From Escherichia phage dhaeg: a stretch of DNA of 64,000 nt. Every line of letters begins with the position of its first letter. Positions within the stretch are counted from its first letter, which is position 1. The translations under genes were made by a program, and so were the position numbers. The stretch lies in sequence record MN850609.1; one strand, given 5' to 3'. The notes below the pieces were generated by a model. That model was not told where the DNA came from, did not search any database, and worked only from the letters and a program-made list of their open reading frames with translations. Positions 29,721-30,398 of the stretch are shown here, piece after piece.

Positions 29721-29943
29721 ACAAACTACCGAACAGAAACTGCAATCTGAAATCGTTCTTCTGAAATCCCGTATTCTTGATACCCAAGATGCCGTTGCTC
29801 AGGCTCAGCAAGAATCTCGTATCCTTCAGGAAGCCCTTGGTAAAATCTGCCGTGCAGTCGGTATTGAAGGTGAGCAGATTAAAATTGATGACATCATCGA
29901 TGCTGTCCAGGCCCTGATTCCAGAAGCTTCTGACGAAGAATAA
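29713..29943 (+). CDS. 57A: tail fibre assembly chaperone gp57A
   Basis: 76 aa; [22 protein letters not shown] resembles T4 gp57A. Confidence 0.85.
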
Positions 29944-30398
29944 TGAAAACCGAAGATTTTGCTCAAGGTCTATACGTTGCTGCAAAATTCTCTGAATTGA
30001 CTTTAGATGCGCTGGAAAATCTTCAGCGCACTTTAAAGGTTCCTAATCCAGTTCCTCGTGAAAAATTCCATTCTACAATCTGCTATTCAAGAGTCAACGT
30101 TCCATACACTGTTGCATCCGGAAGTTTCGAAGTTGCTTCGTCAGGACATCTTGAAGTGTGGAAACATGGTGATTCTCCTGTCTTGGTACTGGTTCTCGAT
30201 TCAGAGTATCTTAAATGCCGCCATCAGTATGCTCGTACCTTAGGTGCTACGCACGATTTCGATGATTACACCCCTCATATCACATTGTCTTATAATGTAG
30301 GACCTCTTACCTTTAGTGGAGATGTCCAGATTCCTGTCGTTTTAGATAGAGAATATAAAGAACCCTTGAAGCTCGACTGGGCCGAGGATTTAAAGTGA
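29943..30398 (+). CDS. 57B: 2H phosphoesterase, gp57B / Acb1-like anti-CBASS phosphodiesterase
   Basis: 151 aa; two H-x-T-x motifs (HSTI, HITL) typical of the 2H fold; position after 57A as in T4. Confidence 0.8.

Follow-up and report, generated by a model that had tools for sequence, protein, structure and literature searches.

When the cGAMP-degrading activity of infected cells was traced by activity-guided fractionation, it proved to be the product of T4 gene 57B, which was named Acb1; T4 lacking acb1 loses this activity (Hobbs et al. 2022, PMC9117128). T4 Acb1 cleaves 3′3′-cGAMP, cUA, cAAA and cAAG and leaves cGG and cA4 uncut, and nine further diverse homologues all cleaved both 3′3′-cGAMP and cAAA (Hobbs et al., PMC9117128). 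The same work assigned a catalytic HxT/HxT tetrad to H44, T46, H113 and T115, base stacking to the aromatic residues Y12, W74, F107 and W147, contact with adenine N6, the basis of the adenosine requirement, to E141, and a C-terminal lid that closes over the ligand to residues 145–152, and it pointed out the adjacency of acb1 and ipI as an anti-defence island (PMC9117128). In T4, acb1 is expressed chiefly in the middle and late phases of infection and shields the phage from CBASS in vivo. It is dispensable on K-12, but where the host carries CBASS it is depleted in transposon libraries. Acb1 also degrades cA3, thereby triggering Panoptes, and T-even phages with an intact acb1 become sensitive to the Panoptes guard systems, whose trigger is the disappearance of cyclic nucleotides.

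We analysed a 64,000-nucleotide stretch of the genome of Escherichia phage dhaeg (sequence record MN850609.1), hereafter the window. The region of interest shares 99.8% identity with Escherichia phage dhabil and 94–98% with phages CLB_P2, IME08, JS98 and JS10, placing the phage by nucleotide similarity with the JS98-like T-even phages of the genus Dhakavirus (Straboviridae, Tevenvirinae). On the plus strand, an open reading frame with an ATG start and a TGA stop spans exactly positions 29943–30398 and encodes a predicted protein of 151 amino acids. A preliminary description made from the DNA sequence had read this frame as gene 57B, an Acb1-type 2H phosphoesterase, pointing to two H-x-T-x motifs and to a position directly after gene 57A as in T4. 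Both motifs are present in the translated product, as HSTI at residues 43–46 and HITL at residues 112–115. The upstream open reading frame at 29713–29943 (+) is gene 57A, encoding the predicted tail-fibre chaperone (PF17594, E = 4 × 10−27), in the same order as in T4.

Comparison with protein families and characterised enzymes identifies the product far more firmly than its motifs. The sole significant Pfam family is PF23474, ‘Anti-CBASS protein Acb1’, matched with 198.2 bits (E = 6.8 × 10−59) against a curated gathering threshold of 27 bits, with residues 8–149 of the product covering all of the profile (1–144 of 144 positions). Among PDB sequences, Acb1 of Erwinia phage FBB1 ranks first (7T26 and 7T27; E = 3 × 10−59, residues 9–148) and is 66% identical to the product in a multiple alignment. 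T4 gp57B (NP_049750.1, with the sequence taken from the T4 record) aligns without gaps at 85% identity and 91% similarity, the window protein being one residue shorter at its N terminus. HxTx motifs alone would be weak evidence, whereas a full-length PF23474 match together with 85% identity to the T4 protein is far beyond chance. No NCBIfam model matched the product, nor the two proteins encoded immediately downstream, a 69-amino-acid protein and a homologue of internal protein I (IPI). With tblastn, homologues appear in 1,486 phage records, 1,463 of them near full length. The open reading frame is almost certainly the Dhakavirus orthologue of T4 gene 57B, encoding a predicted Acb1 that would disarm CBASS, and we refer to it as acb1. 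This predicted orthology rests on profile match, sequence identity, residue conservation and synteny, and the earlier identification of the gene stands on all four. As the preliminary description also recognised, the gene is not novel: it is real, intact and already known, a member of a curated Pfam family and the orthologue of a characterised T4 enzyme. In the supplementary material searched for Hobbs et al. 2022, JS98, JS10, IME08 and Dhakavirus gave no hits.

The residues on which T4 Acb1 depends are retained. All nine residues named by Hobbs et al. are kept in the window protein, each at the T4 position minus one, as Y11, H43, T45, W73, F106, H112, T114, E140 and W146. The first catalytic motif, H43-S-T45-I (T4 H44 and T46), is encoded at 30069–30080 (+) and the second, H112-I-T114-L (T4 H113 and T115), at 30276–30287 (+); both were located by sequence, residue mapping and alignment. 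Alignment to characterised Acb1 proteins, the check that had been proposed for this gene, leaves every catalytic histidine and threonine in place: Y11, H43, T45, H112 and T114 are invariant across seven sequences spanning 38–85% identity, which include those of T4, FBB1 and phages of Aeromonas, Acinetobacter, Cronobacter and Klebsiella. The C-terminal lid reads LDWAEDLK in the window and LDWADDLK in T4, identical at seven of eight positions. The window protein thus shares with T4 gp57B the HxT/HxT tetrad, the stacking aromatics, the adenine-reading glutamate and the lid. Both HxT motifs also align with those of FBB1 Acb1, for which an apo structure (7T26) and a complex with 3′3′-cGAMP (7T27) are available. 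FBB1 carries phenylalanine and tyrosine, still aromatic, where T4 and the window protein have the tryptophan and phenylalanine corresponding to W73 and F106. A single-sequence AlphaFold2 model of the product was unusable (mean pLDDT of 38.5), so the 2H phosphoesterase fold is predicted through homology to the solved structure 7T26/7T27.

Differences from T4 gp57B amount to 22 substitutions, found at the N terminus, at residues 56–58, at residues 75–80 and at scattered sites. Residues 75–80 form the loop right after the base-stacking W73, and FBB1 Acb1 has a one-residue insertion in this same loop relative to the window protein; the substitution cluster here could tune substrate specificity. 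Taken further, the substitutions in this loop beside W73 and at residues 56–58 would accommodate an Acb1 with shifted substrates or a broader role, for example one that prefers cA3 of type III CRISPR or Panoptes-type signalling or that tolerates signals which T4 Acb1 cannot cut, and the known degradation of cA3 with its triggering of Panoptes fits the broader role. However, every reported ligand-contacting residue is unchanged in the window protein, and activity on 3′3′-cGAMP and cAAA was common to the nine diverse homologues tested by Hobbs et al., showing it to be robust to far greater divergence. We therefore consider such a departure from the T4 substrate range very unlikely.

Database labels point to another enzyme. 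PHROG 755 and the RefSeq records of the JS98, IME08 and T4 orthologues carry the name ‘RNA ligase’, and 57B of Acinetobacter phage Octan is annotated as an RNA 2′,3′-cyclic phosphodiesterase. Under these names the product would be a 2H enzyme of RNA repair or RNA ends, either a LigT-type 2′-5′ RNA ligase or an RNA 2′,3′-cyclic phosphodiesterase, perhaps with the products of the nearby tRNA genes as its target; a 2′,3′-cyclic phosphate is also formed and then hydrolysed in the course of the published Acb1 reaction (PMC9117128). The window protein does show a faint match to PF13563 (LigT/2′-5′ RNA ligase) around its second HxT motif. This match, however, is confined to residues 69–122, and its 13.8 bits (E = 0.061) fall far short of the cut-off of 27 bits, compared with 198 bits for PF23474. 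The T4 orthologue, 85% identical to the window protein, was found by its cGAMP-degrading activity, which is lost in T4 without acb1. The two HxT/S motifs held in common with LigT proteins denote superfamily resemblance, not membership, and the ‘RNA ligase’ label stems from this distant 2H-superfamily resemblance; the names are homology guesses older than the Acb1 work. We reject the RNA ligase identity, and an RNA-end function of either kind is extremely unlikely. That acb1 is a decayed or inactive copy kept by linkage has a practically negligible chance of being true: dispensability on K-12 hosts, the natural nonsense alleles that exist (Bas43) and selection for loss by Panoptes would all allow it, but the frame is intact and full length, no catalytic or binding residue is missing, and the gene is identical or nearly so in 51 phage records (at least 95% identity by tblastn).

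The genomic setting of this Acb1 orthologue is that of T4. The gene order 2-3-1-57A-57B-ipI-trna.4/.3/.2-tRNAs-e.8 is that of T4, where it runs on the opposite strand, and both phages have acb1 after 57A and before ipI. A position after 57A and beside the ipI/tRNA variable region is typical of T-even phages and is not family-defining. Gene 1, encoding the predicted dNMP kinase, lies upstream in the same co-oriented block at 28959–29720 (+) (PF21448, E = 1.1 × 10−89; also by the annotation of dhabil, JS98 and T4). The final base of the 57A stop codon TAA is also the first of the acb1 ATG (TAATG; junction GAATAATGAAA). A scan for sigma-70 consensus sites yielded nothing convincing immediately ahead of acb1, the matches there reaching only 9/12 and lying within gene 1; over the whole scan 26 sites were found where 18 ± 3.7 were expected, barely above chance. 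With no convincing promoter upstream and a start codon that overlaps the 57A stop, acb1 is likely to be co-transcribed and translationally coupled with 57A. Further upstream, genes 2 and 3 are separated in the window by a spacer of only about 80 bp (28286–28369), as in JS98, and dhabil has a 651-bp homing-endonuclease gene at this place (2737–3387 of the compared dhabil piece), a presence/absence polymorphism of a mobile endonuclease.

Downstream of acb1, a promoter-like site found by consensus scan (TTTACA, 17-nucleotide spacer, TACTAT, with TG) lies ahead of ipI at 30616–30644 (+), and we infer that it probably sets the 3′ boundary of the block transcribed with acb1. It is one of three near-identical plus-strand sites (TTTACA, a 16–17-nucleotide spacer and TACTAT, preceded by TG), at 30616–30644, 30967–30995 and 33122–33149, which precede ipI, trna.4 and e.8, respectively. 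These sites resemble T4 early promoters, and the arrangement suggests that the small genes ipI, trna.4 and e.8 may form separate transcription modules.

Between acb1 and ipI the window carries a gene that T4 does not have at this place, a 69-amino-acid open reading frame at 30395–30604 (+) coupled to the acb1 stop. Its GTG start overlaps the acb1 TGA (GTGA) and GAGGA stands 8 nucleotides upstream, an arrangement in which its translation is predicted to be coupled to that of acb1. The protein belongs to phrog_23867 (E = 1.8 × 10−42), a PHROG whose label gives no function, and its N terminus, which in relatives reads MKTYQEFLTE|A, resembles the T4 capsid-targeting sequence, MKTYQEFIAE|A in IPIII. 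The gene occurs in only 28 phage records, from Dhakavirus, EcS1, an Erwinia phage and Citrobacter Moonvirus. In Citrobacter phage CF1 the homologue lies directly after 57B, between two annotated internal virion proteins. A large protein search returned only five clusters, with no name beyond ‘hypothetical’. An alignment-based AlphaFold model predicts a confident small alpha/beta fold (pLDDT of 82.9), for which Foldseek gave no match in the PDB below E = 0.1. The 69-amino-acid protein probably represents a new small internal protein of the injected kind. That it also acts against host defences, entering with the DNA as IPI does and co-expressed with Acb1, is rather unlikely on present indications.

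The published annotation of this variable region is incomplete. The records of dhabil, JS98 and IME08 annotate no CDS for the 69-amino-acid gene, and in those of JS10 and UP19 the one gene listed across the match is 57B. JS98 and IME08 each have an unannotated gap of 500–650 bp after 57B (4499–5148 in JS98 and 3999–4505 in IME08, in coordinates of the compared pieces), and this gap holds at least the 69-amino-acid gene.

The preliminary description had also proposed that 57B opens a locus rich in uncharacterised small genes that may carry counter-defence functions. Small genes do follow: the 69-amino-acid gene, the ipI homologue, trna.4, trna.3 and trna.2, and then a gene for a 207-amino-acid protein. 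The counter-defence idea is reasonable, with a known role extending to one of these genes alone. The ipI homologue, at 30683–30961 (+), encodes a protein with 57% identity to T4 IPI (PF11634, E = 1.5 × 10−26). T4 IPI inhibits the GmrSD type IV restriction enzyme (as cited in PMC9117128), and none of the other small genes after acb1 is known to counter host defences. Nor is the idea of an anti-defence locus next to acb1 new, as Hobbs et al. 2022 had already noted the ipI neighbour.

Beyond these genes, the tRNA site of the window holds only three tRNA genes, Met-CAT, Asn-GTT and Arg-TCT (31970–32202, +), compared with eight tRNAs, segB and RNAs C and D in T4; a search of the whole window with Rfam at gathering thresholds returned nothing beyond these three. 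Just after them, at 32438–33061 (+), lies the 207-amino-acid open reading frame, a candidate larger internal protein assigned to phrog_2280, whose function is unassigned in PHROGs. Its product begins MKTYNEFLNE, like a capsid-targeting sequence, and is rich in Pro, Ala and Lys in its central part. Immediately upstream of the frame, at 32402, stands the T4 late-promoter motif TATAAATA. The protein has no match in Pfam.

At a separate place in the window, 43829–44107 (+), we found a homologue of Acb2/Vs.4, a predicted cyclic-nucleotide sponge that is 67% identical to T4 Vs.4 (PF24729, E = 3.5 × 10−16; PDB 7UQ2, E = 1.4 × 10−30). Acb2 serves the same purpose as Acb1, the removal of CBASS signals, but has an unrelated fold and a different mechanism, sequestering the signal where Acb1 cleaves it. 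The phage is thus predicted to carry both known T4 anti-CBASS proteins, Acb1 and Acb2, encoded by physically separate genes.

Transferred by orthology from the work on T4 and FBB1, the substrates, chemistry, timing and phenotype of the window Acb1 can be drawn as follows. The enzyme would be made after infection from the gene 3/1/57A/57B transcription block, by translation coupled to that of 57A, and would bind CBASS messengers that contain at least one adenosine, namely 3′3′-cGAMP, cUA, cAAA and cAAG. The cyclic di- or trinucleotide would be clamped between Y11, W73, F106 and W146; E140 would read adenine N6, and the C-terminal lid would close on the ligand. The H43/T45/H112/T114 tetrad would then promote a metal-independent attack of the 2′-OH on the 3′-5′ phosphodiester, with the adenosine rotated for this purpose, and the reaction would proceed via a 2′,3′-cyclic phosphate intermediate to a linear product with a 3′-phosphate, such as GpAp. 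With the signal removed, CBASS effectors would stay inactive and the phage cycle would be completed. The acb1 product is accordingly expected, as its most likely function, to cleave cyclic di- and trinucleotides that contain adenosine, without need of a metal.

For this phage, acb1 is a landmark, with a value of annotation and context only. The Acb1 assignment corrects the labels ‘RNA ligase’ and ‘hypothetical protein’ in the closest database records, and the sole mildly novel material is the neighbouring candidate internal protein of 69 amino acids, which deserves correct annotation. Together, Acb1 and Acb2/Vs.4 would give this JS98-like phage the full T4-type anti-CBASS kit. From the work on T4-like phages, the phage is predicted to resist CBASS signalling by adenosine-containing cyclic di- and trinucleotides and, from the same work, to be vulnerable to Panoptes-type guards that sense the loss of cyclic nucleotides.
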